Below are positions 19,338 to 45,862 of a DNA stretch of 64,000 nt, one piece after another. Location: the NCBI GenBank assembly GCA_964291675.2, contig OZ219866.1, forward strand, positions 1,984,001-2,048,000, given 5' to 3'. Under the pieces are notes generated by a model, which was not told the origin of the DNA, did no database searches, and worked only from the letters and a program-made list of their open reading frames with translations. Position numbers and translations under genes: made by a program. Positions within the stretch are counted from its first letter, which is position 1. Every line of letters begins with the position of its first letter. The DNA is from Alphaproteobacteria bacterium (lineage in GTDB: Bacteria; Pseudomonadota; Alphaproteobacteria; MPNO01).

Positions 19338-21434
19338 CTACTGGTGGTGGTGCAGCACCTCCGAGTAGGTCGGGAACGGCCACGCGCGGCCGTCCACCAG
19401 GAGCTCCAGCCGGTCCGCCACGTCGCGCGCGGATTGCATGCACGGTTTCAGGGCCTCGTGCGCGTATGACGCGGCCCCTCCCGGATCGTCGTGCGGGAAG
19501 GCGTCGTACGCATCGGCGAGTCTTTCGGTTTCCGAAAGCAGCTCTTCGACGAGCGCGCGCTTCTTGTCGAACATCGGCGACTGGAACCCGGAGTCGCGGT
19601 CGGCGCGGGTGTCCTCGATGGCGACAGGGAGGATCTGGGTCCTGAGGATGCGCAGCAGCGCGCGCGCCTCGATGTGGAGCTCGGTGGCGTAGGCCTCCTG
19701 CAGGACGTTCTGACGCGCCACGAGCTCGTGCTCGTTGAGGATGCCGAGCTCGCCCATCAGCTTGACGTTCTTCTCCGCCGTCAGGGCCTCGTAGGCCTCC
19801 GGGCTGCTCCTGAGGTGGATCAGGCCGTGCTTCTCGGCGTGCTCGTAAAGAGCGTCGGAGTAGCCGTCGCCGCTGAACAGGGCGCCCTGGTTTTCCTGAA
19901 TGGTCTCGCGGATCACCTGATCGACGGGCTTGCCGGCGTCGACCTCGTCGCACATGTGCTTCAGGCTGTCCGCGATCGCCGCGTTCACCATGGTCAGCGG
20001 GAACGCGATATGCTGGTTGCCGCCCACGGCGCGGAACTCGAACCGGTTGCCGCACCACGGGAACGGCGCGGTGCGGTTGCGGTCCTCCAGATTGGCCCGC
20101 ACGTCGGCGACCGGGGCCACGATCTCGATCTCCTTGCGCTCGTTTCCGTAGCCCGCGAAGTCGCCGCCCTCGGCGACCGCCTTCACATGGGCTTCCAGGC
20201 GCTCGCCCAGATGCAGGGTGATGATCGCCGGCGGCGCCTCCTGGGCGCCGAGCCGGTGGTCGTTGCCGGCCGTCGACACGCCGCAGCGCAGCAGGTCGCC
20301 GTGCCGGTTGACCCCGCGCAGCAGGGCCGCGACGAAGGCGATGAAGCGCCGGTTCTCTTCCGCGGTCTCCCCCGGCACGAACAGGTTGGCGCCGGTGTCG
20401 GTGTTGAGCCCCCAGTTGTTGTGCTTGCCGGTGCCGTTGATGCCGGCGAAGGGCTTCTCGTGAAACAGGATGGTGAAGCCGTGGTCGAAGGCGAGGTCGC
20501 GAAGCACGTCCATGGCGAGCACGTTGGTATCCGCCGCGAGGTTGGCGAGGCCGAAGACCGGCGATATCTCGTGCTGCGCGGGGGCGACCTCGTTGTGGGT
20601 GCAATGGATCGAGATTCCGAGCTCCCACATCTTGTCGCGCGCCTCCGCCACGTAGCGGTTCACCCTGGGCGACAGCTTGGAGAAATAGTTGCCGTCCATC
20701 TCCTGGCCGCGCAGCGGCGCCGCGCCCAGCAGCGTGCGCCCCGCGGCCACCAGGTCGGGCCGCGCCAGGTACTTCTCCCGGTCGATCAGGAAGAACTCCT
20801 GCTCCCAGCCCACATTGCACACGACCTCCCTGGTCGAGCTGTCCCCGAGCAGCGAGAGCAGCCGCACGCTTTGCTCGTTGACCGCCATGTCGGCCCGCAA
20901 GAGCGGGGTCTTCTGGTCGAGGGCCTCGCCGTTCCAGGTCACGAAGGCGGACGGGATGTAAAGCGTCTGCCGGTAGACGAAGGGCGGCGATCCGGTGTCC
21001 CAGCCGATATAGGCCGCCGCCCGATGGGTCTCGCGCAGCCCGCCATTGGGGAAGGAGGAGCCGTCGGTCTCGGTCTGGAACAGCTCCGAGCCCGTCAGGT
21101 TGATGATCAGGCGATCGGTGGCGAAATCCACCCCGACGAAGGTTTCCAGCTTCTCGCCGTGGATCGCGCCCCGCATCGGCGAGAACCAGTGCGAATAGCC
21201 GATGCAGCCCTTCGACTGCGCCCATTCGCGAATCGACTTGGCCAGCGCGTTCGCGAAATCCCGATCCATCGGCACGCCCGTCGCGCGGCACTGGGCGAGC
21301 GCGTAGTAGACGTCCGGATCGACCAGCTTCTTCAGTATCGAGTCGTCCAGCACATTGCTGTTGATCATCGCCAGGGCCGGCGGGAGGGCTACCTCCTGGG
21401 TCGGTGCCTCGTGCGTGGAGTGCGTGATTGCCAT
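19338..21434 (-). CDS. glnN: Glutamine synthetase type III
   Basis: 698 aa; ETDGSSFPNGGLR, GWEQEFF, HNEVAPAQHE, HEKPFAGINGTGKH, DHRLGAQEAPP, DRNRT, NRFEFR. Confidence 0.93.
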   Translation of the reverse strand: MAITHSTHEAPTQEVALPPALAMINSNVLDDSILKKLVDPDVYYALAQCRATGVPMDRDFANALAKSIREWAQSKGCIGYSHWFSPMRGAIHGEKLETFVGVDFATDRLIINLTGSELFQTETDGSSFPNGGLRETHRAAAYIGWDTGSPPFVYRQTLYIPSAFVTWNGEALDQKTPLLRADMAVNEQSVRLLSLLGDSSTREVVCNVGWEQEFFLIDREKYLARPDLVAAGRTLLGAAPLRGQEMDGNYFSKLSPRVNRYVAEARDKMWELGISIHCTHNEVAPAQHEISPVFGLANLAADTNVLAMDVLRDLAFDHGFTILFHEKPFAGINGTGKHNNWGLNTDTGANLFVPGETAEENRRFIAFVAALLRGVNRHGDLLRCGVSTAGNDHRLGAQEAPPAIITLHLGERLEAHVKAVAEGGDFAGYGNERKEIEIVAPVADVRANLEDRNRTAPFPWCGNRFEFRAVGGNQHIAFPLTMVNAAIADSLKHMCDEVDAGKPVDQVIRETIQENQGALFSGDGYSDALYEHAEKHGLIHLRSSPEAYEALTAEKNVKLMGELGILNEHELVARQNVLQEAYATELHIEARALLRILRTQILPVAIEDTRADRDSGFQSPMFDKKRALVEELLSETERLADAYDAFPHDDPGGAASYAHEALKPCMQSARDVADRLELLVDGRAWPFPTYSEVLHHHQ

Positions 21435-21657
21435 GACGGTCCTTCCGCGAGAGCCATTACCGGGAAGGGAAAGCTAATGCATGCGTGCGAGGTTCACCAA
21501 GAAAATCCGCGACCCGGAGCGGCGAAAACAAGATTGCAATTTATTTGACCTGTTCGGCGAAAATGGAAAACTATTGAGTACATGTGCGGCTCAGAATTCC
21601 GGCGCAAACGCCGCTGCGCGGGCTTGAAACAGGCGATCGCAACCCTGGGCTGTCTTT

Positions 21658-22107
21658 TTGGGAAGGTCTATAGAACACGCCGTGCTCCATTTTTCACTGA
21701 TCAATGACTTGCGAGAACTTGGCGTTGCCGCGGCGAAAGTCGACGCGTTCTGCGCCGAGCACGGCGTGTCGCGGGATATCGCATTCGCCGTCAACGTGTC
21801 GGTCGACGAGCTGCTGACCAACACCATCAGCTACGGTTTCGACGACGGCGAATCGCACCGAATCGAAATGACCGTCCGCATCGAGGACGACGTGCTGGTG
21901 ATCGAGCTGGTGGATGACGCCACGCCCTACGATCCGACCCGTGCGCCGCATCCCGACATCGACGCGCCGATCGAGCGGCGCCCCATAGGTGGGCTCGGCG
22001 TCCACTTCGTCCGCGAATTGATGGACGGCTTCAGCTATCGCCGCAGCGAGGGGCGCAATATCGTGACCCTGACCAAGCGGACGGGAGACCGTCCGGCGGA
22101 GGGGTAG
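21658..22107 (+). CDS. RsbW/SpoIIAB-like anti-sigma factor / serine kinase (HATPase_c)
   Basis: ELLTNTISYG (N box), DDATPYDP, GGLGVHFV; start uncertain. Confidence 0.88.
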   Translation: MGRSIEHAVLHFSLINDLRELGVAAAKVDAFCAEHGVSRDIAFAVNVSVDELLTNTISYGFDDGESHRIEMTVRIEDDVLVIELVDDATPYDPTRAPHPDIDAPIERRPIGGLGVHFVRELMDGFSYRRSEGRNIVTLTKRTGDRPAEG

Positions 22108-22115
22108 CCCGGCGC

Positions 22116-24680
22116 TCACACCTTGCCGTTGTAGCGCAACACGAGACAGGTGATGTCGTCCGACTGCTCGGCGTCGCCCACGAACTCGCCGACGGCCAGG
22201 GTGACGTTGCCGATCACCGTATCCACCGGCGCTCCCGGACCGATCGAAAGCGCGTTCTCGAGACGACTCTCGTCGAAGGTTTCGCCCTGAATGTTCATCG
22301 CCTCGGAAATGCCGTCGGTATAGAGAAACAGCGTATCGCCGACGCCGAGCGTCACCCGGTTCTCGTCGTATTCCAGCTCCGGCAAGACGCCGACGGCCAC
22401 GCCGCCGGTCAAGGGCAGTGTCTCGATGGCGCCGGTGTTTCGGATCAGGAAGGGCGCGTTGTGACCGGCATTCGCGTAGCTGAGGGTCCCCGTCTGCGGG
22501 TCCAGGATGCCGTAGAACAAGGTCACGAACAGGTCGTGCGGGTTCTCGGAGGAGATCCGGTCGTTGACCACGCGCATGCAGGCGCCGGCCTGGCCGATCT
22601 CCTGGGCGCTGGCGCGCATGACCGTCCGCGTGATCGCCATGAAGAACGCCGCAGCCACGCCCTTGCCGGAGACATCGGCGATCACCAGGCCGAGCCGGCC
22701 GTCCGGCAGGCTGAAATAGTCGTAGAAATCGCCAGCCATCTCGCGCGCCGGCGTCATCACCGCATCGCCCGAATAGGCGGTATCGGGCGGCAGGGTCTTG
22801 GGCAGGATCGCGTGTTGCAGGGAATGCGCGACCGCGAGCTCGTCTTCCATGCGCCGGTTGGCCTCGTCGAGGAGGGCATTCTTGTTCGCGAGGTCGAGCG
22901 TGCGCTCGGCGACCAGGGCCTCCAAATGCTCCCGCCGGGCCTGAACCTCGCGCGCCATCGTCTGGAAGGTGTGGATCAGCCGCCCCAGCTCGTCGCGCCG
23001 CTCGCGGTAGGGGTCGAGCGAATCGGGCTTGAAACTGCCCTGGTCCATTTCTCCCGCCGCCTGGGTCAGCGCGGTGACCGGCCGCGTGATGCGCCGAGCC
23101 GACATGACCGCGGTAACCGCGCCGATCAGAAACGCCGCCAGCGTGATCGCGAGTCCGAAATCGATATAGTCGCCCAGCAATTCGTCGAGATGGTCGCGCG
23201 GCATGTGGATCACCGCGACACCCGTGGCGACGCCGCCGCGATCCAGGATCGGCGCGGCGACGTGGAGCGCCCTGTCGCTGAGGAAGGATTCCGCGGTCCC
23301 CTGGACGGCCCGGCCCGCAAGCGACTTGTCGGCGGAACCGAAAACCGGTTGCTCCGCGCTGCGCAAGGCGCCGGCGGCGACGGCGGCGGTGACCTTGAGG
23401 GCTTCGTCGACGACCCAGATCGCTCTTATGCCCGGCTGGGCGGCCAGCGAGTCGAGCGCCGCGGCGAGGCCGATCGTATCGCGCAGGCCCGTCGTCTTGT
23501 CGGCAAGGCTGCCGACCAGGACCGACCTGCCGTGGCGCGAGCGAACCCCGATATAGCGCAGCGGCACCTCCAGACCGTCCCTGGGTACGGATCGGAACGA
23601 CACCGAGAAGCGCTTCCCCGAGATCAGGGTCTGGAGGACCGGGCTGTCCACATCCCGAAGCGACATGTCGACGCCGGAACGGCCGAGTCCCTCGATCGCG
23701 CGCACCGCCGGCGTTCCCGTGTCGTCGAGCACCCAGATATCGTCGACCGCGCTGTTCGCCGCGATTTCCGCCAGTTCGATCGCGAGCGCCCGATCGTCGT
23801 CCCTCAGAACATCCGCAAGATGGGCCACCGCTATGGCCTGCGCCTCGTTCTCGGCGACGATGACGCGGTCGATCTGGTCCGCGATCACGCCGACCCGGTT
23901 GGCCTCGCTGGCGATCAGCCCGGCCACCATCCTGGCCTGGTTCTCGGCCTGCTCGATCAGCGTGTTGCGCGCCAGCAATCCCAGCGCCACCGCCACGCTG
24001 AGAATGGCGATGCCCACCGATGCGGAGACGATCAGGATCAGATGCCGGGACAGGCTGATGCTGGCATCGCGGCGACGCACGTGGGCGAACCGCATGACCA
24101 GGGCGACGACGCCGGCAAAGGCGAGGAACCAGGCCATCGCATAGAGGTAGATCCAGAAAGAGAGCTGCGGCTGGCCGAGCGCGGCGATCACCGTGTCGAC
24201 CCGGAAGACCATTTCCGGGACACCGATAACCGAGGCGGTGGCCGAAGCCATCACGATGATCAGGAAGTAGTTGGTCCACGACGGCAGGAACAGGAGCGCC
24301 TCGGTGGTCTGGCCGCGCCTGAGATGCCGCAACGCGGCGAGCGCGTTGTCCGAGACGAACCCCGCGACCGCGATCGAAAGCGCGAGCGAGGCCTTGATCC
24401 ACACCGGCACGATGACCGTCGTGCCGAACAACACGAAACTCCCCGGGACCATATAGGCGAGGTAGAACAGCATGACGAAGGTCGGCGCGCTGGCGGCGAG
24501 CATCGTCAGCGCGCCGGCGCCCTGGCTCACGCGGCGCAGGCGGCCGCCGCGCAGTGCCGCCAGAGCCCCCCCGAGCACCGTGCCGATCGCCATCGCGACC
24601 AGCGAGACCAGCATGTTCCAGCCGAAACCGACCGCCAGATAGGGCGTCCAGGTAATCAGGACGTCGATGACATTGGGCAT
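22116..24680 (-). CDS. Fusion protein: amino-acid ABC permease-like domain + TM/periplasmic sensor + HAMP + PP2C (SpoIIE/RsbU-type) phosphatase
   Basis: N-terminal ~200 aa HisM-like TM pattern (LVSLVAMAIGTVLG, ASVIGVPE); two further TMs flank a periplasmic region; HAMP (ITRPV...DELGRL..F..M); PP2C motifs AGDFYD, IADVSGKG, NAGH, YTDGISEA, SDDIT; single uninterrupted ORF. Confidence 0.88.
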   Translation of the reverse strand: MPNVIDVLITWTPYLAVGFGWNMLVSLVAMAIGTVLGGALAALRGGRLRRVSQGAGALTMLAASAPTFVMLFYLAYMVPGSFVLFGTTVIVPVWIKASLALSIAVAGFVSDNALAALRHLRRGQTTEALLFLPSWTNYFLIIVMASATASVIGVPEMVFRVDTVIAALGQPQLSFWIYLYAMAWFLAFAGVVALVMRFAHVRRRDASISLSRHLILIVSASVGIAILSVAVALGLLARNTLIEQAENQARMVAGLIASEANRVGVIADQIDRVIVAENEAQAIAVAHLADVLRDDDRALAIELAEIAANSAVDDIWVLDDTGTPAVRAIEGLGRSGVDMSLRDVDSPVLQTLISGKRFSVSFRSVPRDGLEVPLRYIGVRSRHGRSVLVGSLADKTTGLRDTIGLAAALDSLAAQPGIRAIWVVDEALKVTAAVAAGALRSAEQPVFGSADKSLAGRAVQGTAESFLSDRALHVAAPILDRGGVATGVAVIHMPRDHLDELLGDYIDFGLAITLAAFLIGAVTAVMSARRITRPVTALTQAAGEMDQGSFKPDSLDPYRERRDELGRLIHTFQTMAREVQARREHLEALVAERTLDLANKNALLDEANRRMEDELAVAHSLQHAILPKTLPPDTAYSGDAVMTPAREMAGDFYDYFSLPDGRLGLVIADVSGKGVAAAFFMAITRTVMRASAQEIGQAGACMRVVNDRISSENPHDLFVTLFYGILDPQTGTLSYANAGHNAPFLIRNTGAIETLPLTGGVAVGVLPELEYDENRVTLGVGDTLFLYTDGISEAMNIQGETFDESRLENALSIGPGAPVDTVIGNVTLAVGEFVGDAEQSDDITCLVLRYNGKV

Positions 24681-24682
24681 CG

Positions 24683-26311
24683 CTAGGCCCCGTGCGCCCT
24701 GCGTTCCCAGCTGCGGAGCGCCCACACCGTGGCGAAGACCAGCAGGAAGTAGCACAGCAGCAGCAGGTTCATCATCACGGCGTCATTGCCCTTTTCGGCG
24801 ATGATCGCCGTGCTCGCGTGTACCAGCTCCGGCAAGGCGAGCGTGCTCGCCATCCCGGTGGCCTTGACGATATTGACGGAATTGCCGGCCACGGCGGCCT
24901 GGCACAGCTCCAGCGCGCGGCGGAATTCGCGCCAGGTGAACCCCAGCTTGCCGCCGGGCTCGGCCGCCACGTCCGCGGCCAGGGAGAACGACACCGCGTT
25001 GCTGGCCGCGGCATAGAGCGACAGCACCGCGGCGGCGAGCGAGAACGCATCCAGCGTGAAGCCGTAGGCGAACAGGATGCCGCCGATCCCGAAGAAGAAG
25101 ACGTAGAGCTGAAGCAGCGGGGGCGTCATCCGCAGCACCGCGCAGAACGCTTGCAGCAGCGGCGCCACGACAACCGTCCGGCGATGCAGGACCCAGCCGA
25201 ACAGGGCGCCGAGGACGACGCTGCCCAGCACGGTCGCGACCGAGAGCGCGACGGTCAGGAACAGGCCATGCAGGAACACGCTCCGGTCGAGCGGGTCGTA
25301 GACCGGGCTGACATCGAGCCCCGTCGCCTCCTTGAACGCCATGGATATCCCCGAAATTCCGCCCAACTCCTCGCTGGTGATCAGCGCGCGCTCCCGGCAC
25401 TCCAAAGGCCAGTTGCCGGTCTCGTCGCGGCGGCATCGGAGTTCGCCCGATTCGTCGGTTTCCTTCCAGGTCTCGTGCGCCCGCCGCAGATAGGGCGAGG
25501 GGGGCAGGCTCCACGTCTTCTCCAGCGCCTGGAAAAACCCCTCGCGATGCCACGCGGCCACGGTGTCGCCGAACAGGCGGTCGAGTCGTCCTCCGGCCTC
25601 CTCCTTTGCGATGGCGATCGCCCAGGGCGCGACGAATCGCGTCGGCAGGGCCACGGTGTAACCGTCCCACTCCCCGCTCGCCAGGGCGCTGAGCAAGTTG
25701 ACCTCGTCGTACAGCCAGCCCACGCAGTGTCCGTTGCGCAAGGCGAGCGCGGCTTCCCGGGTGGAGTTGAGGGAAATCGTCTCGACCAGGAGGCGTTGCG
25801 CGGCCAGGCGGTTCCAGATCGAGCCCTGCACGCTGCACAGCGTCCGGCCGCGGAGGCCTTCCCAGGTCGAGATCCCCGAGTCTTCGCGCATCAGCACGTT
25901 GGCGCCGTCGCCGTAATACTGGGGCTCGATCATGTGCACCAGCCGGCGGCGGCTGCGGTTGTCGCCCAGCGTGGCGATAACGACGTCGATCTCGCCGCGC
26001 GCGAGCTTCTGCAGACGGTTGGCGCTGGTCACCGGTGTCAGCCGCAGCGCAACACCGATCGCGTCCGCCAGGCCGCGCGCGACATCGACGTCGTAGCCCA
26101 CCAGCCTGCCGGAATCGTTGCGCACGCCGAAGGGATGGTAGTCCGCCTTGACGCCGGCGATCAGGTGGCCCCGAGCCCGGATCTCGTCCAGCCGATCCGC
26201 CGTTGCCGGCGCCGCGACCGACAGCCAGGCGGCGCTCAGGACGACCAGTCGGGCGAGACGGAAGAACCGCCGGGGCGCGACATTCACAAACGAAAGACCG
26301 GCAGGTCTCAC
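24683..26311 (-). CDS. Fusion protein: polar amino-acid substrate-binding domain (SBP_bac_3) + ABC permease domain
   Basis: Signal peptide; GVKADYHPF, GYDVDVA, RGEIDVVIA; C-terminal TMs with RMTPPLLQLY and VKATGMAS.LALPEL. Confidence 0.88.
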   Translation of the reverse strand: MRPAGLSFVNVAPRRFFRLARLVVLSAAWLSVAAPATADRLDEIRARGHLIAGVKADYHPFGVRNDSGRLVGYDVDVARGLADAIGVALRLTPVTSANRLQKLARGEIDVVIATLGDNRSRRRLVHMIEPQYYGDGANVLMREDSGISTWEGLRGRTLCSVQGSIWNRLAAQRLLVETISLNSTREAALALRNGHCVGWLYDEVNLLSALASGEWDGYTVALPTRFVAPWAIAIAKEEAGGRLDRLFGDTVAAWHREGFFQALEKTWSLPPSPYLRRAHETWKETDESGELRCRRDETGNWPLECRERALITSEELGGISGISMAFKEATGLDVSPVYDPLDRSVFLHGLFLTVALSVATVLGSVVLGALFGWVLHRRTVVVAPLLQAFCAVLRMTPPLLQLYVFFFGIGGILFAYGFTLDAFSLAAAVLSLYAAASNAVSFSLAADVAAEPGGKLGFTWREFRRALELCQAAVAGNSVNIVKATGMASTLALPELVHASTAIIAEKGNDAVMMNLLLLCYFLLVFATVWALRSWERRAHGA

Positions 26312-27066
26312 GGCCGGGCCACGATCAGGAAACCGTAGCCGACCGCCACCGGGGCGAGCGCGCAGGCCAGATCGTCGAGCCAGCCCAGCAGCGGGTTGCC
26401 GACCACCGCGGTCTCCGGCAGCAGGCTTTCCGGCTCGACGCTCTCGATTCGGAAGCCGGCGGACGACAATTCATCGCGTGCCTCGGCGGGCGAGAACAGG
26501 TGATAGAACATCTCGATACTACCAGCCTCCGAACGGCGCGCGTACAAAACATCGCCGGGCTCCAGATCGCCGTCCCGCACCATCGGGGCCGCGGCGCGCT
26601 GCTCCGCGTGGAACCGGCGTCGCGCATTGGGCAGGCTGAGCACCAGAACGCCGTCCGGCTTGAGGATTTCCCGAATCGCGGCGAGCAGAGCCGCGCGCTC
26701 CTTCCGCCCCGCCACATGGGCGAGGACGCCGAATGCGAGCAGTGCGAGGTCGAACCCGCGTGGAAACGACTGGGCGAGAGCCGTCGCGTCGGCGTTGCGC
26801 ACCGAGAGGCGTCCGCCGCCGACGAAAGTCGCCAGACGCTCCGACAGCATGTGGCAGGCGGTCGGGCAGACGTCGTAGGCCATGCCCGTTGCGCTTGTGT
26901 GTTGCAAGAGGGGCAGGGTGTAGCGCCCCGTCCCGGCGCCGAAATCGACGAAGCGGCCCTCCGCCGGCATCAGGCGCAGCACCCTCCGCAGCGTGCGCCG
27001 ATTCGGGGCGGGATAGCGGCGGTCGTAGAGCCCCGACGCCAGATACTCATCGTAGCTGTGGGACAT
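26308..27066 (-). CDS. Class I SAM-dependent methyltransferase
   Basis: VDFGAGTGR motif I, LKPDGVLVL; stop overlaps the next start (GTGA); start could lie further upstream. Confidence 0.85.
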   Translation of the reverse strand: MSHSYDEYLASGLYDRRYPAPNRRTLRRVLRLMPAEGRFVDFGAGTGRYTLPLLQHTSATGMAYDVCPTACHMLSERLATFVGGGRLSVRNADATALAQSFPRGFDLALLAFGVLAHVAGRKERAALLAAIREILKPDGVLVLSLPNARRRFHAEQRAAAPMVRDGDLEPGDVLYARRSEAGSIEMFYHLFSPAEARDELSSAGFRIESVEPESLLPETAVVGNPLLGWLDDLACALAPVAVGYGFLIVARP

Positions 27067-27267
27067 ATCCGGCGTGGTTGCCTGGGGCTCGGCCACACCG
27101 GCGGCCACGCAATCCTTGATGCCGCTGGGTGAAATGTTGGCGTCTCCACTGGCCCCATCGAGATGCGGATGCATCTCGTCGAGATTGAAAATGCGGGCTG
27201 CGCCGCCCGATAGCGGTGAGCGGCGCTCAAATTCTCCCGATCGCCGATAAATTCTGCCCGGGTTCGA

Positions 27268-27339
27268 GATTGTCGATGCCTCCATTGTTGACAATTTTGG
27301 CCTCCGGTTCAAATAGTAAGTCCAGACGGCTCGACAATC
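27268..27339. promoter_or_regulatory. Candidate operator cluster in the divergent promoter region
   Basis: GATTGTCGA (27268-27276) and its exact reverse complement TCGACAATC (27331-27339) flank near-palindrome ATTGTTGACAAT (27284-27295), which contains TTGACA. Confidence 0.45.
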
Positions 27340-27434
27340 GAAAACCGGCTGCGACCGTTTGTCGCAGAGGCGGTCGGTCCGGGCCGCGCCATGGGCCGAA
27401 TCCCCGACCGGCCGATCGAGAGGAGCAAGGCAAG

Positions 27435-28340
27435 GTGAAGCTGCGACGAGCGGGCCGGTTGAGCTTCCCGAGGGCGGCGGTCGCGCTGACCGGTGCGGTG
27501 CTGGCGACGGTCAGCTTCGCGGCGACGGCGGCGGAGAGCGTCCTGACCCGAATCGCCGAGGACGGAATGCTCCGCGCCGGCACCCGGGCCAGCGCCGCGC
27601 CCTTCGCCCAGAAATTGCCGACGGGAGAATTTCGGGGATTCTCCGTCGATCTTCTGCAGGATATCCGGGCTGCGGTGCAGCGCGAGGTGGGCCGCCCGGT
27701 GCGCATCGAGCTTCATGAAGTCACGCCGAGCGACCGTCTGCAGCGGGTCGCCCGGGGCGAGCTCGATATCGTCTGCGGCATCACCACGCCGACCTGGGAC
27801 AGGGAGGCGACCGTCGATTTCTCGCTACCGTTCTTCCGCGACGGTACCCGGGTGATGGTATACCGGCGCGGCGCCGGAGAGACCGTCGATGTCGCCAAGC
27901 TCAATATCGGCGTCGTCAAGGGCACCACGACCGTCGACGTTCTCAAGAACAACCTCCCGGGGACGCGGCTCAGCGAATTCCCCAACATGGCCGCGGCGAT
28001 GAGCGGGTTCGAGAAGGGCGAGGTCGACGGGGTCGCCAATGTCGGCGTCGTGCTGCTCGGTCTCGCCGAGCGCAGCGAGCCGCGGCGCAGCGTCGTGCTG
28101 CTGCCGAGGACCCGATCCCTGGCGACCGAGAGCCTCGCCTGCGTGCTGCCGCAGAACGACAGCCGCTGGCGGGATCTGGTCAACCGAACCCTGATCCGCA
28201 TGTTCGGCGACGTGCGGCAGTTCAGGGGACGCTACGAGGAAATCTACAATCGCTGGTTCGGGCGGGACGGCGCGCTGTTCTACCCGCTCGATCGCGCGAC
28301 CCGCGACTATCTCGCCGACGTGTCCATCTGGGCCAAGTAG
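27435..28340 (+). CDS. Polar amino-acid ABC substrate-binding protein (GltI-like)
   Basis: Signal peptide; GTRASAAPF, GFSVDL, DIVCG.TT.T..RE..VDFS. Confidence 0.88.
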   Translation: MKLRRAGRLSFPRAAVALTGAVLATVSFAATAAESVLTRIAEDGMLRAGTRASAAPFAQKLPTGEFRGFSVDLLQDIRAAVQREVGRPVRIELHEVTPSDRLQRVARGELDIVCGITTPTWDREATVDFSLPFFRDGTRVMVYRRGAGETVDVAKLNIGVVKGTTTVDVLKNNLPGTRLSEFPNMAAAMSGFEKGEVDGVANVGVVLLGLAERSEPRRSVVLLPRTRSLATESLACVLPQNDSRWRDLVNRTLIRMFGDVRQFRGRYEEIYNRWFGRDGALFYPLDRATRDYLADVSIWAK

Positions 28341-28539
28341 TCGCCGGATCGTCGGCGCACCCGCGGCGCGTCCCGACCGGCTCCGACGGCGCGGCGAACC
28401 CATCGAGGTTGATTGCCGCCCGGTTCGCGGCCTATAAGAATGTCATTCCCTGAATCGTAGTTTCTGTTGGCGTGACTCCCGAGAACGGCTGGATGGCTGC
28501 ACCGCGAGCGCCAATGCGAACCGGAGGGCATGCAATATC

Positions 28540-30027
28540 ATGTCGCACATCGCGAATTCGATCGGATTGACGGCTACCGAACGCAGGGCCGGGCGTGGGT
28601 CGACCCCGTCAGGCGCCGCGCGGTTCGATGCGGGACACCGCGACGGCGCTCGGGACACCGGCGTCTCGCCGGGATGGCGGCGCGCCGCCCCGCTCGGGCT
28701 CGCCGTCGCCGCCCTGCTTCTGCTCCCGGCGGACGCGCATGCGGCGGTGGCCGACGAGACGCAATTCGTCCTGAACAGCTTCTCGTTCCTGATCTGGGGC
28801 GCGCTGGTGATGTGGATGTGCGCCGGTTTCACCATGCTCGAATCGGGCTCGGTGCGGACCAAGAACGCCTCGGTCATCTGCCTCAAGAATATCGGCCTCT
28901 ACTCGATCGCCGGGCTGATGTTCTACCTCGTCGGCTACAACATCATGTATGTCGGGGTCCCCGAAGGCGGCTGGTTCGGCACGCTGACGCTGTTCTACGG
29001 CACCACCGGCGAAGAAAAGGCGCTGCTCGGCGGCGGCGGCGACGCGGCCAAGGCGGGCGCCGCGGTGGTCAAGAACGGCTATTCGACGATGTCCGACTGG
29101 TTCTTCCAGATGGTGTTCGTCGCCACCACCGCCTCGATCGTCTCCGGCACGCTGGCCGAGCGGGTGAAGCTCTGGTCCTTCCTGCTGTTCATCACCGTGC
29201 TCACGGCGATCATCTACCCGGTCATCGGGTCATGGACCTGGGGCGGCGGCTGGCTGTCGGCGATGGGCTTCCAGGACTTCGCCGGTTCGACGATCGTCCA
29301 CTCCACCGGCGGCTGGGCGGCGCTTGCCGGGGCGCTGGTGGTCGGCGCGCGGAAGAACAAGTTCCGCGCCGACGGCAGCGTGAAGGTCACCCCGCCATCC
29401 AACGTGCCCGCAGTGACGCTCGGCGTGTTCATCCTCTGGCTCGGCTGGTTCGGGTTCAACGGCGGCTCGCAGCTCGCGCTCGGCGGCGCCGCCGACGCGG
29501 TGGCGATCAGCAACATTCTCGCCAACACCAATCTCGCCGCGGCCGCGGGGGTGATCGCCGCGATGGCGCTGTCGCGTCCGGTTCTCGGGCGCGTCGATCT
29601 TCTCGCCAGCCTGAACGGCGCGATCGGCGGCCTGGTGGCGATCACCGCGGGGCCCGACATCGTCCAGCACTACTGGGCGGTGATAATCGGCGCGGTCGGC
29701 GGCTGCATCGTGGTCCTCGGGATCAAGCTGCTCGACCGGCTCAAGATCGACGACGTGGTCGCGGCGGTTCCGGCGCATCTGTTCGCCGGCGTGTGGGGCA
29801 CGCTCGCGGTGTGCATCGCCGCGGGCGGCGATATCGTTGCGCAGATCACCGGCATCCTGGCCATCGGGGCGTTCGTGTTTGCCGCCTCGTGGGTGGTATG
29901 GTGGGCGATCGATTCGACCATCGGCGCGCGCGTCACGCCGATAACGGAAGAGCTGGGGCAGGATGTCGCGGAGCTGGGCATCGAGGCCTATCCGGAATTC
30001 GTCGTCGTCCCCGACATGGACGACTGA
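28540..30027 (+). CDS. amt: Ammonium transporter (Amt)
   Basis: GFTMLESG.VR.KN, FFQMVF, DFAGSTIVH, WFGFNGGS, IDDVVAAVPAH; twin His and Phe gate apparently intact. Confidence 0.96.
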   Translation: MSHIANSIGLTATERRAGRGSTPSGAARFDAGHRDGARDTGVSPGWRRAAPLGLAVAALLLLPADAHAAVADETQFVLNSFSFLIWGALVMWMCAGFTMLESGSVRTKNASVICLKNIGLYSIAGLMFYLVGYNIMYVGVPEGGWFGTLTLFYGTTGEEKALLGGGGDAAKAGAAVVKNGYSTMSDWFFQMVFVATTASIVSGTLAERVKLWSFLLFITVLTAIIYPVIGSWTWGGGWLSAMGFQDFAGSTIVHSTGGWAALAGALVVGARKNKFRADGSVKVTPPSNVPAVTLGVFILWLGWFGFNGGSQLALGGAADAVAISNILANTNLAAAAGVIAAMALSRPVLGRVDLLASLNGAIGGLVAITAGPDIVQHYWAVIIGAVGGCIVVLGIKLLDRLKIDDVVAAVPAHLFAGVWGTLAVCIAAGGDIVAQITGILAIGAFVFAASWVVWWAIDSTIGARVTPITEELGQDVAELGIEAYPEFVVVPDMDD

Positions 30028-30128
30028 GGAATGGCTTGCCTGCCCGAGCGGCCCGCATTCGAGTACAATGGGGCGCCGCACCGGCCGAAGGCGTGCGTTC
30101 ATAGAAGCAGCCGCAGGACACGAAGACG

Positions 30129-30467
30129 ATGGATTTGACGACTGAACGAAGCGAAAACGTCGTGTGCGTGGACGTGAAGGGGCGAATCGACGGGTCCACC
30201 GCCGTCGCCTTCGAGGAGTCTGTGCGCAACGCGCTCGAGGAATCCGACCGCGCCATGATCATGGATTTCCGGGAGCTCGCCTATATCAGCAGCGCCGGGC
30301 TCCGGGTGATCCTGCTGACGGCGAAGTCGCTGCAGAGCCAGGACGCGAAGCTGGTGCTGTGCTCGCTTTCCGATCAGATTCGCGAAGTGTTCAAGATCAG
30401 CGGCTTCGACAAGCTTCTGCCGATTCACGAGACCAGGGAGGAGGCGCGCGAGTCGCTCGGCGCCTGA
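30129..30467 (+). CDS. STAS domain anti-sigma factor antagonist (RsbV/SpoIIAA-like)
   Basis: GRID, YISSAGLR containing the phosphoacceptor Ser, VFKISGF. Confidence 0.92.
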   Translation: MDLTTERSENVVCVDVKGRIDGSTAVAFEESVRNALEESDRAMIMDFRELAYISSAGLRVILLTAKSLQSQDAKLVLCSLSDQIREVFKISGFDKLLPIHETREEARESLGA

Positions 30468-30554: not shown

Positions 30555-31259
30555 ATGGACGGACGGAAGGTTGCGATCGTTACCGCCGGCGGCAGGGGGA
30601 TGGGGGAAGCGATCGCCCGGGCCCTCGCCGGGCGGGACCACGCGCTGGTCCTGATGTCGCCCGGCGGGTCGGCCGAGGCGCTGGCCGAAGAGCTTGGCGC
30701 GATCGGCGTGAACGGCTCGGTCACCCGGGCGGAGGACCTCGAAGCGGCGGTCGCGGCGGCGATGGATGCGCATGGCCGGGTCGACGCGGTGGCCAACAAT
30801 GCCGGCTTCCCGCCCAAGGGGGAGCTGCTCGACATCCCCGACGAGGACTGGCGCGACGGCCTCGACATGGTGCTGCTGAACGTCATCCGCATGGCGCGCC
30901 TGGTGACGCCGATCATGGTCGCGCAGGGCGGCGGCGCGATCGTCAACATATCCACCTACGCCGCCGTCGAGCCCAGCCCGGCCTATCCGGTCTCGGCCAC
31001 GTTCCGGGCCGGGCTCTCCGCCTTCACCAAGCTGTATGCGGACCGCTACGCCGCCGACGGCATCCGCATGAACAACATCCTGCCCGGCTTCATCGACACC
31101 CATGGGGTCGATGAAGGGGTGGCCGCGGGAATTCCCGCGCGGCGCTACGGAACCCCGGAAGAGGTGGGCGAGACGGCGGCCTTCCTGCTGTCGGACGGCG
31201 CCGGCTACATCACCGGCCAGAACCTCCGCATCGACGGCGGGCTCACCCGCTCGGTTTAG
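30555..31259 (+). CDS. SDR family oxidoreductase
   Basis: TAGGRGMG, NNAG, YITGQNLRIDGG. Confidence 0.9.
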   Translation: MDGRKVAIVTAGGRGMGEAIARALAGRDHALVLMSPGGSAEALAEELGAIGVNGSVTRAEDLEAAVAAAMDAHGRVDAVANNAGFPPKGELLDIPDEDWRDGLDMVLLNVIRMARLVTPIMVAQGGGAIVNISTYAAVEPSPAYPVSATFRAGLSAFTKLYADRYAADGIRMNNILPGFIDTHGVDEGVAAGIPARRYGTPEEVGETAAFLLSDGAGYITGQNLRIDGGLTRSV

Positions 31260-40210: not shown

Positions 40211-41542
40211 ATGACCGACGACCGCCTCCGATCGATAGCCGACGCCGCGGCGGCGAAGCTGGTGCCGGGCGAGACGCTGCGACTCGCGGCGCGGATGGTC
40301 GATATTCCGAGCCCGTCGGGCCGCGAGCGCGAGCTGGCGGAGACGGTCGCGGGCTTCATGGCGGATAACGGCCTCGAAGGGCGCTGCCAGGCGGTCGACG
40401 GCGAGCTGTGCAACGCCCTCGGCCGGCTGCCCGGCTCCGGCGGCGGCGCCGAGCTGATGCTGTTTTCTCCCCTGGACACCGCCTTCGCCGGAACCCCCGA
40501 AGCCGATGGGCCGTTCCTCGGCACGCCGATGCGCGACGACCAGATCGCTTCCGCCCGCATCGAGGGCAAGGTCCTGACCGGGCTCGGCGCGCACAACCCG
40601 AAGGGCCACGCCGCCGCCGCCGTCATGGCCGCAATCTGCCTCGCGCGCGCCGGCGCGGCGCTCCCGGGCGATGTCGTCGTGGCGCTCGGGGGCGGCGGCA
40701 TGCCGACCAACATCCCGGCGGGCGACGGACGGGCCGGGCGGCGGATCGGCCACGGCGCCGGTTGCGCGTTCCTGCTCGAGCAGGGCGTCCGCCCCGATTA
40801 TGCCATCGTCGTCAAGCCGGGCCCTCCGGCCTGGGAGGAGGTCGGCCTCTGCTGGTTTCGCGTTTCGGTGCGCGGGCTGCTCGGCTACGCGGGGACACGG
40901 CACGCGGTGGCGCACGCCAACCCGATCCTCGCGGCGACCAGGGTGATCGAGGGGCTGGAGGCCTGGTTCGCCGACTACTCGGAGGCCAACGCGTCCGGCA
41001 CCCTGCGCCCGCAGGGCTCGATCGGCTGTATCCGCGCGGGCTGGGCCGAGAAGCCGACCTTCATCCCCGAGATCTGCGAGATCTATCTCGATCTGCGCAG
41101 CACGCCCCGCACCGGTCCGGCCGAGGTGCGCCGGCAATTCGCCGCCGCGATCGAGTCCATCCGCGCGGCCGATGACGGTCTCGATGTCGACTGGGAGATG
41201 ATCCTCGCCGTGCCCGCCTCCCATACCGACCCGGAGAGCTGGATCGTGGGCGCGGCGATCCGCGCATGGGAGCGCATGACGGGCCGCCCCTTCGTCTCCG
41301 GGAGCGACGGCAGCGGCGCCACGGAGGCGAACGTGATCCGCAATTGGGGCATCCCGACGGCGCGCTTCGGGCTGCCGCCGCCGCCCCAGCCGCTGCCGCG
41401 CTCGGGGCAATTCTCGATGGGGGAGGTGCACGCCGACAGCCTGGATTCGCTGGTGCGCGCGCTGATCGACGCCGCCGTCGACACCTGCGGGCGGCCGCTG
41501 GCCGAGCTGGATACGGAATCGGAGCGAGGCCCGCGATGTTGA
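40211..41542 (+). CDS. M20/ArgE-fold protein with degenerate metal-binding motifs
   Basis: IPSPSGRE, LFSPLDT, GLGAHNPKG, dimerisation domain with DLR. Confidence 0.75.
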   Translation: MTDDRLRSIADAAAAKLVPGETLRLAARMVDIPSPSGRERELAETVAGFMADNGLEGRCQAVDGELCNALGRLPGSGGGAELMLFSPLDTAFAGTPEADGPFLGTPMRDDQIASARIEGKVLTGLGAHNPKGHAAAAVMAAICLARAGAALPGDVVVALGGGGMPTNIPAGDGRAGRRIGHGAGCAFLLEQGVRPDYAIVVKPGPPAWEEVGLCWFRVSVRGLLGYAGTRHAVAHANPILAATRVIEGLEAWFADYSEANASGTLRPQGSIGCIRAGWAEKPTFIPEICEIYLDLRSTPRTGPAEVRRQFAAAIESIRAADDGLDVDWEMILAVPASHTDPESWIVGAAIRAWERMTGRPFVSGSDGSGATEANVIRNWGIPTARFGLPPPPQPLPRSGQFSMGEVHADSLDSLVRALIDAAVDTCGRPLAELDTESERGPRC

Positions 41543-42690
41543 TGCCCAAGCCCACCGGCGTGCCGCGCAACCTGACCGAACAGATCACCGGGCGGGAGCA
41601 GGGCGCGTCGCGGTTCCGCATCTACGACAGCCATCCGCTCGGGCTCCCCGAGTACTGGTATCCGATACTCTGGTCCAGAACCCTGAAGCCGCGCCGGGGC
41701 ATCGGGCTCACGCTGCTCGGCAAGGAGGTCGCGCTGTTCCGCGAGGGCGGCAGGGCCTACGCCCTCGACAACCGCTGCCCGCATCGCGGCGTGCCCATCG
41801 ACAACGCGCAGTGCGATTTCGCCGGCACCCGCACCTGCCCCTATCACGGCTGGGTGTTCGAGCTGGAGACCGGGCGGCTGCGCGCCGCGCTCACCGACGG
41901 GCCGGACTCCCCGATCGTGAAGAAGGGCAGCGTCCGCGTGCGCACCTACCCCGTCGAGGAGCGCTGCGGGCTGGTCTGGATCTATCTCGGGGACGGCGAG
42001 CCGCCGCCGGTCGAGGACGACATCCCCGACGAGTGGCTGCTGCCCACGGCGATCGTCACCGGGCGCATTTCCGAGCGCGCCGGCGACTGGCGCTACGCCG
42101 TCGAGAACGGCTACGACGAGGGGCACGTCAAGTACCTCCACCGCCGCGGCGTCTGGACCTTCTGGCGGCGCGCGCCCGGCTGGGGGTGGTCGGAGCCGCG
42201 CATCTCGGAGGACGGCAAGTGGTTGACGCGCGAGACCAGGGAAATCGGCTTCTGCGCCGAGTTTCCCGGGCTCGGCGTCTGGCCGCCGCAGAAATGGTAC
42301 AAGTGGCGCCCCGGCGCGCGCGGCATCAAGTTCCGCCTGCCCTGCACGCTCCGCGTGGCGTACCGGGCGTGGGCGCATTTCGAGTGGTACGTGCCGACCG
42401 AGCGCGGGCACCACCGCTATCTCCAGTTCATCTGCAAGCAGGCGAGCGGGCTTGCGGCGCTCTGGCACCGGATCAAGTACCTGCTCTACATCCGCCCGTT
42501 CTTCCACCACCAGTTCAACGACCAGGACGCCTGGATGGTGGAGAACATGGTGACGCCGCCGGAGATACTCTACCGGCCCGACGGCGCCATGCAGTCGGTG
42601 CGCCAGTACTACGAGGACACCGCGCGCGGCTTCGGACGCGAGCCCGTCGAGCGGTATCCCAGGGAAGGCAGCGGGCCGGGCGCCGACTAG
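41536..42690 (+). CDS. Rieske non-heme iron oxygenase, CarAa/OxoO (homotrimeric) family
   Basis: CPHRG...CPYHG Rieske motif, ENGYDEGHVKYLH, FEWYVP, FNDQD. Confidence 0.88.
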   Translation: MLMPKPTGVPRNLTEQITGREQGASRFRIYDSHPLGLPEYWYPILWSRTLKPRRGIGLTLLGKEVALFREGGRAYALDNRCPHRGVPIDNAQCDFAGTRTCPYHGWVFELETGRLRAALTDGPDSPIVKKGSVRVRTYPVEERCGLVWIYLGDGEPPPVEDDIPDEWLLPTAIVTGRISERAGDWRYAVENGYDEGHVKYLHRRGVWTFWRRAPGWGWSEPRISEDGKWLTRETREIGFCAEFPGLGVWPPQKWYKWRPGARGIKFRLPCTLRVAYRAWAHFEWYVPTERGHHRYLQFICKQASGLAALWHRIKYLLYIRPFFHHQFNDQDAWMVENMVTPPEILYRPDGAMQSVRQYYEDTARGFGREPVERYPREGSGPGAD

Positions 42691-42707
42691 GACGCAGGGG
42701 GACGGGC

Positions 42708-43532
42708 ATGGGCGAGAACGGCGGCAGATTCGTCCGCATCGACGGACACCGGATCCATATCGACGAGACGGGCGAGGGCTACCCGGTGATCTGCCTCCAC
42801 GGCGGCGGACCCGGCGCCGGCGGCCGCAGCAACTTCCGCTACAACGTGGACGCGGTCGCGGCGCGCTACCGCACGATCCTCATGGACATGCCGAATTTCG
42901 GCAAGTCCGACATGATCGTCTCCGACAAGGGCCGGCTCAGCCTGTGCGCCGACATGATCCGCGGGCTGATGGACGCGCTCGGCATCCCGAAGGCCCACTT
43001 CATCGGCAACTCGATGGGCGCCCAGAGCGTGTTCAAGTTCGCCCTCGACCATCCGGACCGTATCGACCGCTTCGTCGCCATCGGCAACACCACCTACACG
43101 CGCACCTTCTTCCAGCCGCGCCCGGCGGAGGGCATCAGGCTGATCGCCGAGTACTATCGCGGCGAAGGCCCCACCGAGGAGAAGATGCGCGCCCTCTTGA
43201 CCGCCATCGTCTACGACCCGTCCTTCATCACCGACCGGATCGTGAGAGAGCGCTACGAGGCGAGCGCCGAGCCCCGGGTGGTCGAGCTGTGGTCGAACAA
43301 CCCGCCAAAGCCCGAGGACATCGGCGACCGGCTGCACGAGGTACGCTGCCCGGTCCTGCTCATGTGGGGGTCGCAGGACCGTTTCTCGTCGCTGGATTCC
43401 GGCCTCTCCATGGTCAACATCCTCGCCGACGCGCGCATGCACATCTTCCCGCGCTGCGGCCACTGGGTGCAGGTGGAATGCGCCGAGGAGTTCAACGAGC
43501 TCGCGCTCGCCTTCCTCGCCCGCGAGTCGTGA
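42708..43532 (+). CDS. Meta-cleavage product C-C hydrolase (CarC/BphD/MhpC family)
   Basis: LHGGGPGA, GNSMG, CGHWVQ. Confidence 0.88.
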   Translation: MGENGGRFVRIDGHRIHIDETGEGYPVICLHGGGPGAGGRSNFRYNVDAVAARYRTILMDMPNFGKSDMIVSDKGRLSLCADMIRGLMDALGIPKAHFIGNSMGAQSVFKFALDHPDRIDRFVAIGNTTYTRTFFQPRPAEGIRLIAEYYRGEGPTEEKMRALLTAIVYDPSFITDRIVRERYEASAEPRVVELWSNNPPKPEDIGDRLHEVRCPVLLMWGSQDRFSSLDSGLSMVNILADARMHIFPRCGHWVQVECAEEFNELALAFLARES

Positions 43533-43542
43533 GAGCGGGCGG

Positions 43543-43794
43543 GTGAGCCGCTACGAGCTCAACCGGGCGATGTACGAGGGCACGCGCGACCGGTCGATCG
43601 CCGACAAGGCGGAGTTTCTCGCGGCCTACGCGCTCGACGAGGCGGAGCGGCGGGCGCTGGCCGCGCCCAACTTCGCGGCGATCCTCGATCTCGGCGGGCT
43701 GCCCAACCTGGTCTACCGGTACTACCGGGCGCACGGGCTCGCATTCGAGGCGTTCTCCGAGCGCCTCGGCCGCGACCGCGCGGAGCTCGGCTAG
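43543..43794 (+). CDS. LigA/CarBa-like small subunit of class III extradiol dioxygenase
   Basis: 83 aa helical protein directly before a LigB-like gene; Y.L...ER.AL, G.LPNL. Confidence 0.7.
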   Translation: MSRYELNRAMYEGTRDRSIADKAEFLAAYALDEAERRALAAPNFAAILDLGGLPNLVYRYYRAHGLAFEAFSERLGRDRAELG

Positions 43795-44634: not shown

Positions 44635-44662
44635 ATGACTTTGGCAACCATGATGACGATAG

Positions 44663-45231
44663 TTACAGATTTGCCGAAAACCGCGCCAGTTCGGCGGCTG
44701 TCGCTTCGAGTCCCAGTCCCGCGAGGATGGCGCGATAGTCGTGAACTGAGATAGGCGGCGCTACCAGCCGGATTCGTATCTTGCGCACAGCGTCGCAGAA
44801 GGGGCCGGGCATCAGGTCAAGGTGATCGGACAGAAAGTTGTCGGGGTGCAGGATTTCGATCCCGTAGGGTGCGACCGCGTCCTCCGGGAAGTCTCGCAGG
44901 TTGCAGGTAACGATCGCGTCGCAGCATCCGACGATCGCGCGGCAAGAACATGACGATCGTCGGGATCGGGAAGATCGAGCGCGGGAATCAACGGTTCGTA
45001 TCCGGTGACCAGACAGTCCCGCGTGGCTTGGTCCATGCGACGGCGGGTGTGTTCGAGGGTCGCTCGATCCCGGTGAGGTTCGTTGCGGATCAGGGCGTCG
45101 ATCCACTCCCGATGGATGTCGGCGGTCCACTTCGCGCGAAAGACATCGTCAGCCGCCAACTGCAGGAAAATATCCCGCATCGGTGCGGGATAGAGGATGT
45201 TGGCGTCGAGAAGGGCGGTGACGCCCGTCAC
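44663..45231 (-). pseudogene. PIN domain (VapC-like) toxin, frameshifted near 44938
   Basis: LLDANIL...LPDPDDRHVLAA in one frame continues as AIVGCCDAIVTCNLRDFP in another; one missing G restores HVLAAAIVG. Confidence 0.8.
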
Positions 45232-45692: not shown

Positions 45693-45822
45693 GCATGCCT
45701 CCTTGGAAGGCGTGAATCCGCAGAGTGAAGATATTTGTATGAAATAAATGAAGCTATCGAAGCAAATGTCAACGGCGCTTGGGTCGAGGCGTGGGTCCGA
45801 GCGTCGGCTGCATTCACTCGGG

Positions 45823-45862
45823 TTGTATCCCCAGAGCTCCTACACCGCCTCTGGGGATACAA
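45823..45862. repeat. Perfect 14-bp inverted repeat
   Basis: TTGTATCCCCAGAG (45823-45836), 12-nt loop, CTCTGGGGATACAA (45849-45862). Confidence 0.9.

Follow-up and report, generated by a model that had tools for sequence, protein, structure and literature searches.

The polar amino acid importers of the PAAT type, such as Art(QN)2 (4YMS) and HisQMP2, place two genes for five-helix transmembrane domains (TMDs) after the gene for a substrate-binding protein (SBP), and like all ATP-binding cassette (ABC) importers they are defined by their ATPase. Partner-switching systems such as RsbU/RsbW/RsbV and SpoIIE/SpoIIAB/SpoIIAA consist of a PP2C phosphatase, a kinase of the HATPase_c_2 family and a STAS protein that carries a conserved Ser. 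Here we describe a gene cassette that combines parts of both kinds, encoded in a stretch of 64,000 nt of contig OZ219866.1 from an Alphaproteobacteria bacterium (hereafter the window). It comprises an SBP fused to a TMD (SBP1-TMD1), a second TMD (TMD2) that forms the N-terminus of a membrane-bound PP2C phosphatase, a methyltransferase, a free SBP (SBP2), an RsbW-like kinase and a STAS protein (Table 1). The cassette has no cognate ATPase, and the loops on which such an ATPase would dock are deleted from both TMDs. We consider it likely that the cassette is a receptor derived from an ABC importer, which works without ATP and sets the phosphorylation state of the STAS protein.

Similar to Art(QN)2 and HisQMP2, the cassette has TMDs of the five-helix fold, two TMD genes after an SBP gene and SBPs of the amino acid family. 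In the nearest canonical alphaproteobacterial relatives the gene order is SBP, TMD, TMD, GlnQ. In contrast to the PAAT/HEQRo importers, the cassette lacks the ATPase and the EAA loops, its TMDs score under the family cut-offs, and its TMD2 has a phosphatase or kinase as fusion partner. By three defining features (cut-off, EAA loop and ATPase) it therefore falls outside the PAAT importers, although it shares their fold. As in GlnPQ of Lactococcus lactis (6h30, 4kpt), an SBP is located N-terminal to a TMD, and GlnP binding domains are among the structural matches of SBP1. GlnPQ has the GlnQ ATPase and transports, whereas the cassette has no ATPase and carries a conserved linker with two Cys residues (aa 291-307) between SBP1 and TMD1.

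TMD1 and TMD2 are genuine but very divergent membrane domains of type I ABC importers. Neither matched Pfam BPD_transp_1, and nothing useful emerged when the TMD fragments were scanned against Pfam with E values of up to 10. In a genome-wide scan with TIGR01726 the two domains reached 40.4 and 26.1 bits, below the cut-off of 42.2, and the 10 canonical HEQRo permeases of the same genome were all above it. When the proteins were scanned singly, TMD1 scored 35.7 bits with TIGR01726 and was covered by a cystine permease model over 15-202 of its 222 positions; TMD2 matched NF011680 (E 3e-6) and TIGR01726 (E 5.6e-4). For TMD profiles built from eight lineages, ArtQ of Art(QN)2 was the sole PDB match, over the whole five-helix domain (4yms_D; E 1.7e-6 for TMD2 and 1.7e-5 for TMD1). 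A TMD2 model from a 46-row alignment (pLDDT 94.6, pTM 0.86) was also closest to ArtQ (E 2.4e-7, TM 0.69/0.72), followed by the MetI, Opp, Dpp and Mal membrane subunits. Together with the matches of both SBPs to solved binders of polar amino acids, these results confirm the permeases and SBPs read from the window in an initial annotation.

SBP1-TMD1 consists of an N-terminal anchor or signal peptide (aa 16-34), a binding domain of the polar amino acid type (aa 50-267) and a five-helix domain (aa 345-538, by hydropathy). The nearest structures to SBP1 are TmArgBP (6svf) and AncQR. In the phosphatase, as the initial annotation had proposed, the second permease is the N-terminus of a single 854-aa protein: TMD2 (aa 1-~205, five transmembrane helices, TM1 to TM5) is followed by TM6 (aa 214-232), a periplasmic double alpha/beta domain (aa ~238-498) with weak dCache matches, TM7 (aa 508-526), a HAMP domain (aa 528-580), a coiled coil and the PP2C domain (aa 659-850).

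The coupling loop of type I importers (EAA-x3-G-x9-I-x-LP) is the docking site of the ATPase. When TMD2 and TMD1 from 21 loci were aligned with MAFFT, a 20-residue gap (2+18) was found in TMD2 of every sensor-type locus, removing the second half of the docking loop; the remnant reads RRG--QTTEALLF---LPSW where canonical permeases have GQWE[AS]AE[AS]LAF[ST]RxQTxxxIILPQCxKRMxPPWMN. In TMD1 of the same loci 9 residues (VPxxTxEAA) are gone, and 16-17 in Kaistia, Bosea and locus L128. The EAA loop that characterizes PAAT permeases is thus missing from both domains. HMMER comparison with ArtQ agrees with the alignment, as ArtQ has ~20 additional residues at the TMD2 gap and its 'neaarsl' faces the gap in TMD1. 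In the TMD2 model, TM3 ends at residue 121, a one-turn helix spans 125-128 and TM4 begins at 131; this leaves ~9 residues between TM3 and TM4 and no space for a pair of coupling helices. Mean column identity is 68-69% over 8 lineages, and 'VSDNAL..RH' at the remnant loop is invariant and the most conserved stretch of the domain. The invariance of the residues flanking the scar points to a newly acquired contact in the cytoplasm and not to decay. We also rejected decay into pseudogenes, as the frames are open, conservation is high and the catalytic motifs are intact.

Consistent with the initial annotation, which had seen neither a matching ABC ATPase nor a sigma factor in the block, no GlnQ-type ATPase was found among the open reading frames (ORFs) scanned in the window. 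The only two ABC-ATPase ORFs of the window lie at least 20 kb from the cassette, beside the permeases of other transporters. The window genome (4.8 Mb, 2 contigs, 93.7% complete) encodes exactly five GlnQ-type ATPases (233-580 bits; next best 185), each adjoining one of five canonical permease pairs, so that none is an orphan. In two other genomes that carry the cassette (G402 and G403), the lone GlnQ-type ATPase adjoins the lone canonical pair, and in Kaistia (G401) both GlnQ-type ATPases are paired with permeases. Among related loci, no GlnQ-type ATPase was located within 10 kb at any of 13 genome loci, where the top HMM score was 180 bits as against 313-343 in canonical operons, nor was one of at least 200 bits found at any of 80 metagenome loci. 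The ABC ATPases that do occur near related loci are of the MalK/UgpC, PotA/PhnT2, ZnuC, DppF, sugar-type, bacteriocin exporter and LptB kinds. Within this clade a GlnQ-like ATPase is hence no routine part of homologous loci; a sister clade of two genomes does carry one, and there the docking loops are intact.

Loss of the loops and loss of the ATPase go together, both in the alignment and in the 30 best loci from a 401-genome sample of the class. Six of these 30 have the short loop, none with an adjacent GlnQ. In 19 of the 24 full-loop loci GlnQ is adjacent (at least 249 bits), two more are cut by contig ends, and two (L100 and L102, identical to L129 and L130) have GlnQ in a neighbouring partner-switch operon. 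The latter two loci form the sister clade. They encode SBP2, a fused SBP1-TMD1 and TMD2 with intact loops that are visible to Pfam, and the adjoining operon reads STAS-PP2C-methyltransferase-ATPase-RsbW. Their ATPase is GlnQ-like, with intact Walker A, signature (LSAGQ), Walker B and H-loop motifs. In a maximum likelihood tree of 38 TMD2 rows (unrooted, drawn with a midpoint root and ignoring the rogue long branch own_C2_1110), a branch with support of 99/100 sets all 24 rows with short loops apart from those with intact loops, and L129/L130 adjoin this branch. The simplest history is that a PAAT importer already tied to a partner switch underwent a single loss of the ATPase and both loops, after which TMD2 was fused to either enzyme.

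The cassette is not confined to the window. Ten loci with the same gene set were found in a species-genome collection (Defluviicoccus, other Alphaproteobacteria, metagenome-assembled genomes of Rhodospirillales, two Kaistia and one Bosea) and three more in the 401-genome sample, giving 13 genome loci beyond the window. In a set of 5.8 billion proteins, 98 relatives of the phosphatase were detected at E <=0.001; among the clusters, 22 are 853-855 aa long with an N-terminal TMD2, and 62 are 641-689 aa long and begin exactly at the end of TMD2. Where the phosphatase is without TMD2, a separate gene immediately upstream encodes this domain. The RsbW kinase, instead of the phosphatase, is the fusion partner of TMD2 in Kaistia and Bosea (L007-L009) and in protein clusters P0102 and P0110; in L128 a kinase domain directly follows TMD2 and may be fused to it. 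That the fusion partner is the phosphatase in some lineages and the kinase in others strongly indicates that TMD2 acts together with the switch, and all fusion topologies would fit a five-helix domain with N-terminus out and C-terminus in. A TMD2 profile search of 1.84 billion representatives (50% identity clusters) returned 709 matches at E <=0.001 and 48 at <=1e-30; of the best 150, 90 cover the loop, with the 23-residue span of the window TMD2 in 55 and the canonical 43 residues in 16. Short-loop TMD2-like domains also occur in other company: in P0185 and P0190 (650-657 aa) with an NMT1_3 (TAXI-like) binding domain, and in P0109 (484 aa) with SBP_bac_3 on the C-terminal side.

A metagenome scan with a 12-row alignment as query identified 80 further loci, at 47-92% identity. 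Where the flank was sufficient, TMD1 was located upstream at 71/71 loci, SBP1 was present at 60/60 and the methyltransferase at 43/51, directly upstream of SBP1-TMD1. Among the 28 loci with a flank of 4 kb or more on each side, SBP2 and the sensor part of the phosphatase were each found at 19, and, within ~8 kb, STAS at 17 and RsbW at 11. The partner sensor was checked against Pfam at 8 metagenome loci and was a SpoIIE phosphatase each time, with a detectable dCache domain in two. The recurrence of the cassette at 13 genome and 80 metagenome loci, the variable fusions of TMD2 and the loop deletions uphold the central idea of the initial annotation, an ATPase-less ABC set tied to a partner switch. 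As for the neighbourhood it had pictured, the absence of the ATPase is general (0/93) and the linkage of STAS and RsbW is recurrent in part, whereas Amt and type III glutamine synthetase (GSIII) are each present at 1 of the 28 flanked metagenome loci.

The switch enzymes have the features expected of a partner-switching module. The metal-binding Asp residues of PP2C (D651, D654, D669, D789, D841 and D842) show no variation among 47 sequences; the N-box residues E51, N55 and G60 and the GGLG motif of the HATPase_c_2 kinase, with its N and G boxes, are invariant in 9 sequences, as is S55 in 'YISSAGLR' of the STAS protein, the predicted phosphorylation site. With catalytic and phosphorylation-site motifs intact, all three are predicted to be functional. 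The PP2C fold is closest to RssB, the RsbU part of Rv1364c and SiaA-PP2C (6k4e), with TMt 0.84. Compared with RsbU and SpoIIE modules, the cassette shares the phosphatase, the kinase and the STAS protein with its Ser, but the block has no sigma factor gene, the input is a relic of an ABC importer, and in some lineages the kinase is membrane-tethered.

SiaABCD of Pseudomonas aeruginosa likewise sets a membrane HAMP-PP2C protein (SiaA) against a small kinase (SiaB), with a small phospho-protein (SiaC) and a target other than a sigma factor, the cyclase SiaD. The phosphatase matches NF038263 (SiaA) at E 1.3e-30, but its 106.5 bits are far from the cut-off of 700, and it is not an equivalog. SiaA is not known to have an ABC-permease domain. 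In contrast to SiaABCD, the substrate in the cassette is a STAS protein, and no diguanylate cyclase (GGDEF) gene was found among the ORFs scanned in the window.

The methyltransferase, absent from the initial annotation, is a conserved core member of the cassette and lies directly upstream of SBP1-TMD1 at most genome loci as well. Structure comparison against PDB and Atlas returned only generic class I S-adenosylmethionine (SAM) methyltransferases. SBP2 is present at 13/13 genome loci and has a hydrophobic signal at aa 87-105; its nearest PDB structures are AncQR (4zv1) and DEBP (2ia4), and it matches the GrrP-like TIGR04262 (2e-39). Complex prediction of SBP2 with the periplasmic domain of the phosphatase gave a score of 0.29 against a mark of 0.32.

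We propose that SBP1-TMD1 and TMD2 would form an importer-like membrane heterodimer, by homology with ArtQ2 and HisQM. As the EAA loops are deleted and a cognate ATPase is absent, neither half should be able to dock a nucleotide-binding subunit. The tethered SBP1, and perhaps also the free SBP2, would bind an amino-acid-like ligand and dock on the TMD pair from the periplasm. The ensuing shift in the pair may be relayed to the signalling enzyme from TM5 of TMD2 through TM6, the periplasmic domain, TM7 and HAMP to PP2C, whereas the TMD2 of Kaistia and Bosea would act on the RsbW kinase to which it is fused. PP2C and RsbW would oppose each other at Ser55 of the STAS protein, the phosphorylation state of which would be the output.

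Several points weigh against this reading. Ligand binding, TMD1-TMD2 pairing and signalling are drawn from homology and gene context. The phosphatase has a sensor-like periplasmic domain of its own, and the signal may therefore take another route than the TMD pair. The cassette does not always have RsbW and STAS close by, as the metagenome counts (11/28 and 17/28) indicate, and no RsbW or STAS gene was detected at L006, L126 and L127. The metagenome loci were found with short-loop motifs; their uniform short loops are therefore partly due to construction, but the absence of the ATPase is not. Locus L120 has an intact loop and no ATPase within 1.5 kb, which makes the correlation between loop and ATPase imperfect. 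For one canonical permease pair of Kaistia, at 861-862 kb, no strong GlnQ-type match was listed in the vicinity; either importers do share ATPases or one escaped the search. Lastly, the whole-protein model of the phosphatase is poor over TMD2 (pLDDT <50); because it was unusable there, TMD2 was modelled separately with a deeper alignment.

Should the periplasmic domain of the phosphatase be the real sensor, directly or via SBP2, the TMD pair might only anchor or position SBP1 or aid assembly. Binding-protein-dependent sensors are well known, the split phosphatase alone is a complete membrane sensor (transmembrane helix, double alpha/beta domain with weak dCache matches, transmembrane helix, HAMP, PP2C), and in more distant variants the SBP2 gene is found directly before the phosphatase gene. 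However, a role as a mere anchor in the periplasm is hard to square with the fusion of TMD2 to a cytoplasmic kinase in several lineages, conservation within TMD2 is highest in the cytoplasmic remnant loop, and TMD1 is upstream at every flanked metagenome locus (71/71). We regard this alternative as unlikely, though it deserves to be taken seriously.

Less probable still is a cassette that has remained an ATP-driven importer, borrowing its ATPase from elsewhere, with a phosphatase that senses flux as in co-sensing of the Bce/Pst type. The homology is to PAAT importers, the sharing of ATPases between importers is known, and L129/L130 do hold an ATPase in the partner-switch operon; nevertheless, the EAA loops are deleted in both TMDs, no orphan GlnQ-type ATPase exists in the window genome, G402 or G403, and none of the 93 related loci has one nearby. 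The initial annotation had spoken of a 'transceptor', a term that implies transport. With ATPase and docking loops gone, ATP-driven transport is unlikely and the term is not supported. A transceptor in the strict sense, in which the TMD pair is an ATP-independent amino acid facilitator or channel as well as a receptor, would be in line with the well-conserved TMD core, but nothing in the analysis speaks for transport, and transport by the TMD pair of a type I importer in the absence of its ATPase is not known to us; we give this option hardly any weight.

If the cassette is a receptor derived from an importer, the question arises what its STAS protein controls. The target is probably not a sigma factor encoded nearby: no sigma factor family was found among the ORFs scanned in the window, nor among the Pfam-scanned ORFs of 25 related loci, a search that did not extend to targets encoded elsewhere. 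Only a faint Sigma70_r4/GerE match was seen, in L128 (G224). At that locus, the region 3' of the phosphatase (L128:12664-15391) encodes a PAS-GGDEF protein as well as one of 356 aa in which a LuxR/GerE helix-turn-helix is faintly recognizable; both are possible outputs there.

In the initial annotation, the STAS state was suggested possibly to control Amt or GSIII, replacing the usual PII/Ntr logic. An Amt gene is present at 7 of 94 loci including the window (window, L001, L002, L011, L126, L147 and L155), with STAS directly after it in six of the seven, L126 being the exception; GSIII is found at six of the 94 (the same set without L126), and in L011 and L155 the gene order is Amt-STAS-GSIII. 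The Amt of the window is the sole strong Amt of its genome and has no glnK beside it; STAS, not PII, follows, in contrast to the AmtB-GlnK pairing. On the other hand, each gene is found at only 1/28 flanked metagenome loci, an NCS2 permease takes the place of Amt in Kaistia and Bosea, other loci have unrelated neighbours, and the genome retains its sole PII gene (C1:404245-404562) directly upstream of the GSI gene glnA (region G000:C1:402764-404562). The Amt/GSIII linkage is real only in a Defluviicoccus-like subclade, and control of either protein by the STAS state in place of PII appears improbable. In L007 and L009 the STAS gene faces a gene for a 585-aa NCS2 protein (Xan_ur_permease; L007:13614-15371 and L009:13670-15427) with a C-terminal tail of ~180 residues without family match, and the methyltransferase and a short-chain dehydrogenase (SDR) gene follow.

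A broader but improbable idea is that motor-less ABC receptors are widespread and turn SBP docking into a phospho-switch on Ser/Thr. The STAS protein of the Defluviicoccus-like clade might then plug or gate the sole ammonium channel, and perhaps GSIII, such that external amino acid status would control ammonium uptake in parallel to PII/GlnK, and the methyltransferase might have a tuning role at the receptor like that of CheR at chemoreceptors.

Sensors that derive from transporters are well established, among them UhpC and the yeast proteins Snf3/Rgt2 and Ssy1, and co-sensing is known for Pst. GerAB, the SLC5 domains of CbrA and CrbS, and BceAB in co-sensing resemble the cassette in that a transporter or its homologue reports substrate to a signalling protein. 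None of these systems is a type I ABC importer without an ATPase, and BceAB and Pst need ATP hydrolysis. The output of the cassette also differs, being a Ser/Thr partner switch and not a histidine kinase. Our literature search, the coverage of which did not include subscription journals, found no ATPase-less ABC permease pair joined to PP2C, RsbW and STAS. The parts are thus of known kinds (PAAT importer, GlnP-like SBP fusion, SiaA/RsbU-like switch), and it is their combination that was not found in the literature so covered.

A whole family has shed its ATPase, with clean deletions of the docking loop in both membrane subunits, yet is under strong selection. If the proposed reading is correct, the family would be a clear example, in bacteria, of an ABC transporter that has become a pure receptor. 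As a living intermediate (L129/L130) keeps the ATPase, the steps of the change from transporter to receptor can be studied. The cassette would represent a new type of input for partner-switching systems other than the models from stress response and sporulation. It also provides an experimental opening to the question of how importer TMDs respond to SBP docking without a nucleotide cycle.

Table 1. Coordinates of the cassette, its neighbours and the loop sites within the window.
Feature	Coordinates	Strand	Evidence or remark
GSIII (type III glutamine synthetase)	19338-21434	-	GSIII_N, Gln-synt_C, Gln-synt_C-ter; context gene
RsbW-like serine kinase	21658-22107	+	HATPase_c_2, E 1.2e-24
TMD2-periplasmic domain-HAMP-PP2C fusion, 854 aa	22116-24680	-	HAMP + SpoIIE, SpoIIE E 6.7e-49
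TMD2 TM3 cytoplasmic end and EAA-loop remnant (VSDNALAALRHLRRGQTTEALLFLPSW)	24276-24356	-	alignment, model
SBP1-TMD1 fusion, 542 aa	24683-26311	-	SBP_bac_3, E 2.6e-21
TMD1 EAA-loop deletion site (AADVAAEPGG)	24950-24979	-	alignment gap
Class I SAM methyltransferase	26308-27312	-	Methyltransf_23/12/25/11, E 6e-11 to 4e-9
SBP2, free polar-amino-acid-family binding protein	27435-28340 (ORF open from 27216)	+	SBP_bac_3, E 6.2e-21
Amt, ammonium transporter, marine subtype	28540-30027	+	Ammonium_transp E 3e-93; TIGR03644 519.5 bits, above cut-off
STAS, anti-sigma-antagonist type	30129-30467	+	STAS E 3.2e-22; TIGR00377 89.9 bits, above cut-off
Short-chain dehydrogenase (SDR)	30555-31259	+	adh_short_C2 E 4e-50
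ABC-ATPase ORF	49428-50381		beside another transporter's permease
ABC-ATPase ORF	~59919-61733		phmmer only; beside another transporter's permease

Every gene named in the initial annotation is present, at or very near the coordinates given there. As the G+C content of the window is ~70%, real frames were chosen by codon-position G+C and family matches. The methyltransferase, SBP1-TMD1 and the TMD2-PP2C fusion form, in this order, a three-gene operon on the minus strand, in which the methyltransferase stop overlaps the GTG start of SBP1-TMD1 (GTGA) and the ATG of the fusion is located 2 nt past the TAG of SBP1-TMD1. Homologues favour this ATG at 24680 over a GTG at 24755. SBP2, with a likely GTG start at 27435, is transcribed away from the operon, and the STAS gene lies 101 nt downstream of Amt. 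The SDR gene is a recurrent neighbour of the cassette, also present in L007, L009, L138 and L211. The G+C content of positions 20001-30000 is 0.65-0.68, as against 0.70-0.73 around them, which may point to acquisition from elsewhere.

Other genes were observed beside related loci. A second ATPase-less, EAA-deleted pair (SBP-TMD1 and TMD2) is encoded beside a dCache adenylate/guanylate cyclase in L138 (5185-10227) and also in L143, L115 and L116; an SDR and an unrelated methyltransferase are encoded there as well. At these loci a different output may be coupled to the same input module. BLASTP found no likeness between the sensor part of the window phosphatase and the L138 dCache cyclase, nor between the two methyltransferases, so these loci are a loose parallel only. 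A GPP34 (GOLPH3-like) gene is located beside the STAS, Amt or phosphatase gene of the cassette in L003 (13803-14537), L011 (1765-2442), L126 (12414-13079) and L149 (10393-11175), and none was found among the ORFs scanned in the window. In distant metagenome variants a YbaK-like tRNA_edit gene is found right 3' of the phosphatase (L179:11687-12274, L182:11470-12072, L195:11579-12226 and L201:8664-9866), in L201 fused to an MTS-type methyltransferase. Downstream of the cassette in L201 (9945-13093), two free STAS genes flank the gene for a SulP transporter that has a cyclic nucleotide (cNMP)-binding domain as well as a STAS of its own.

Elsewhere in the window, a 326-aa ORF at 4841-5821 on the plus strand has gene-like codon G+C and no Pfam family at E up to 1. 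The region 41266-59910 contains two sets of Rieske/homotrimeric ring hydroxylase and LigB-type extradiol dioxygenase genes, with hydrolases and amidohydrolases, and looks like a region for the degradation of aromatic compounds.

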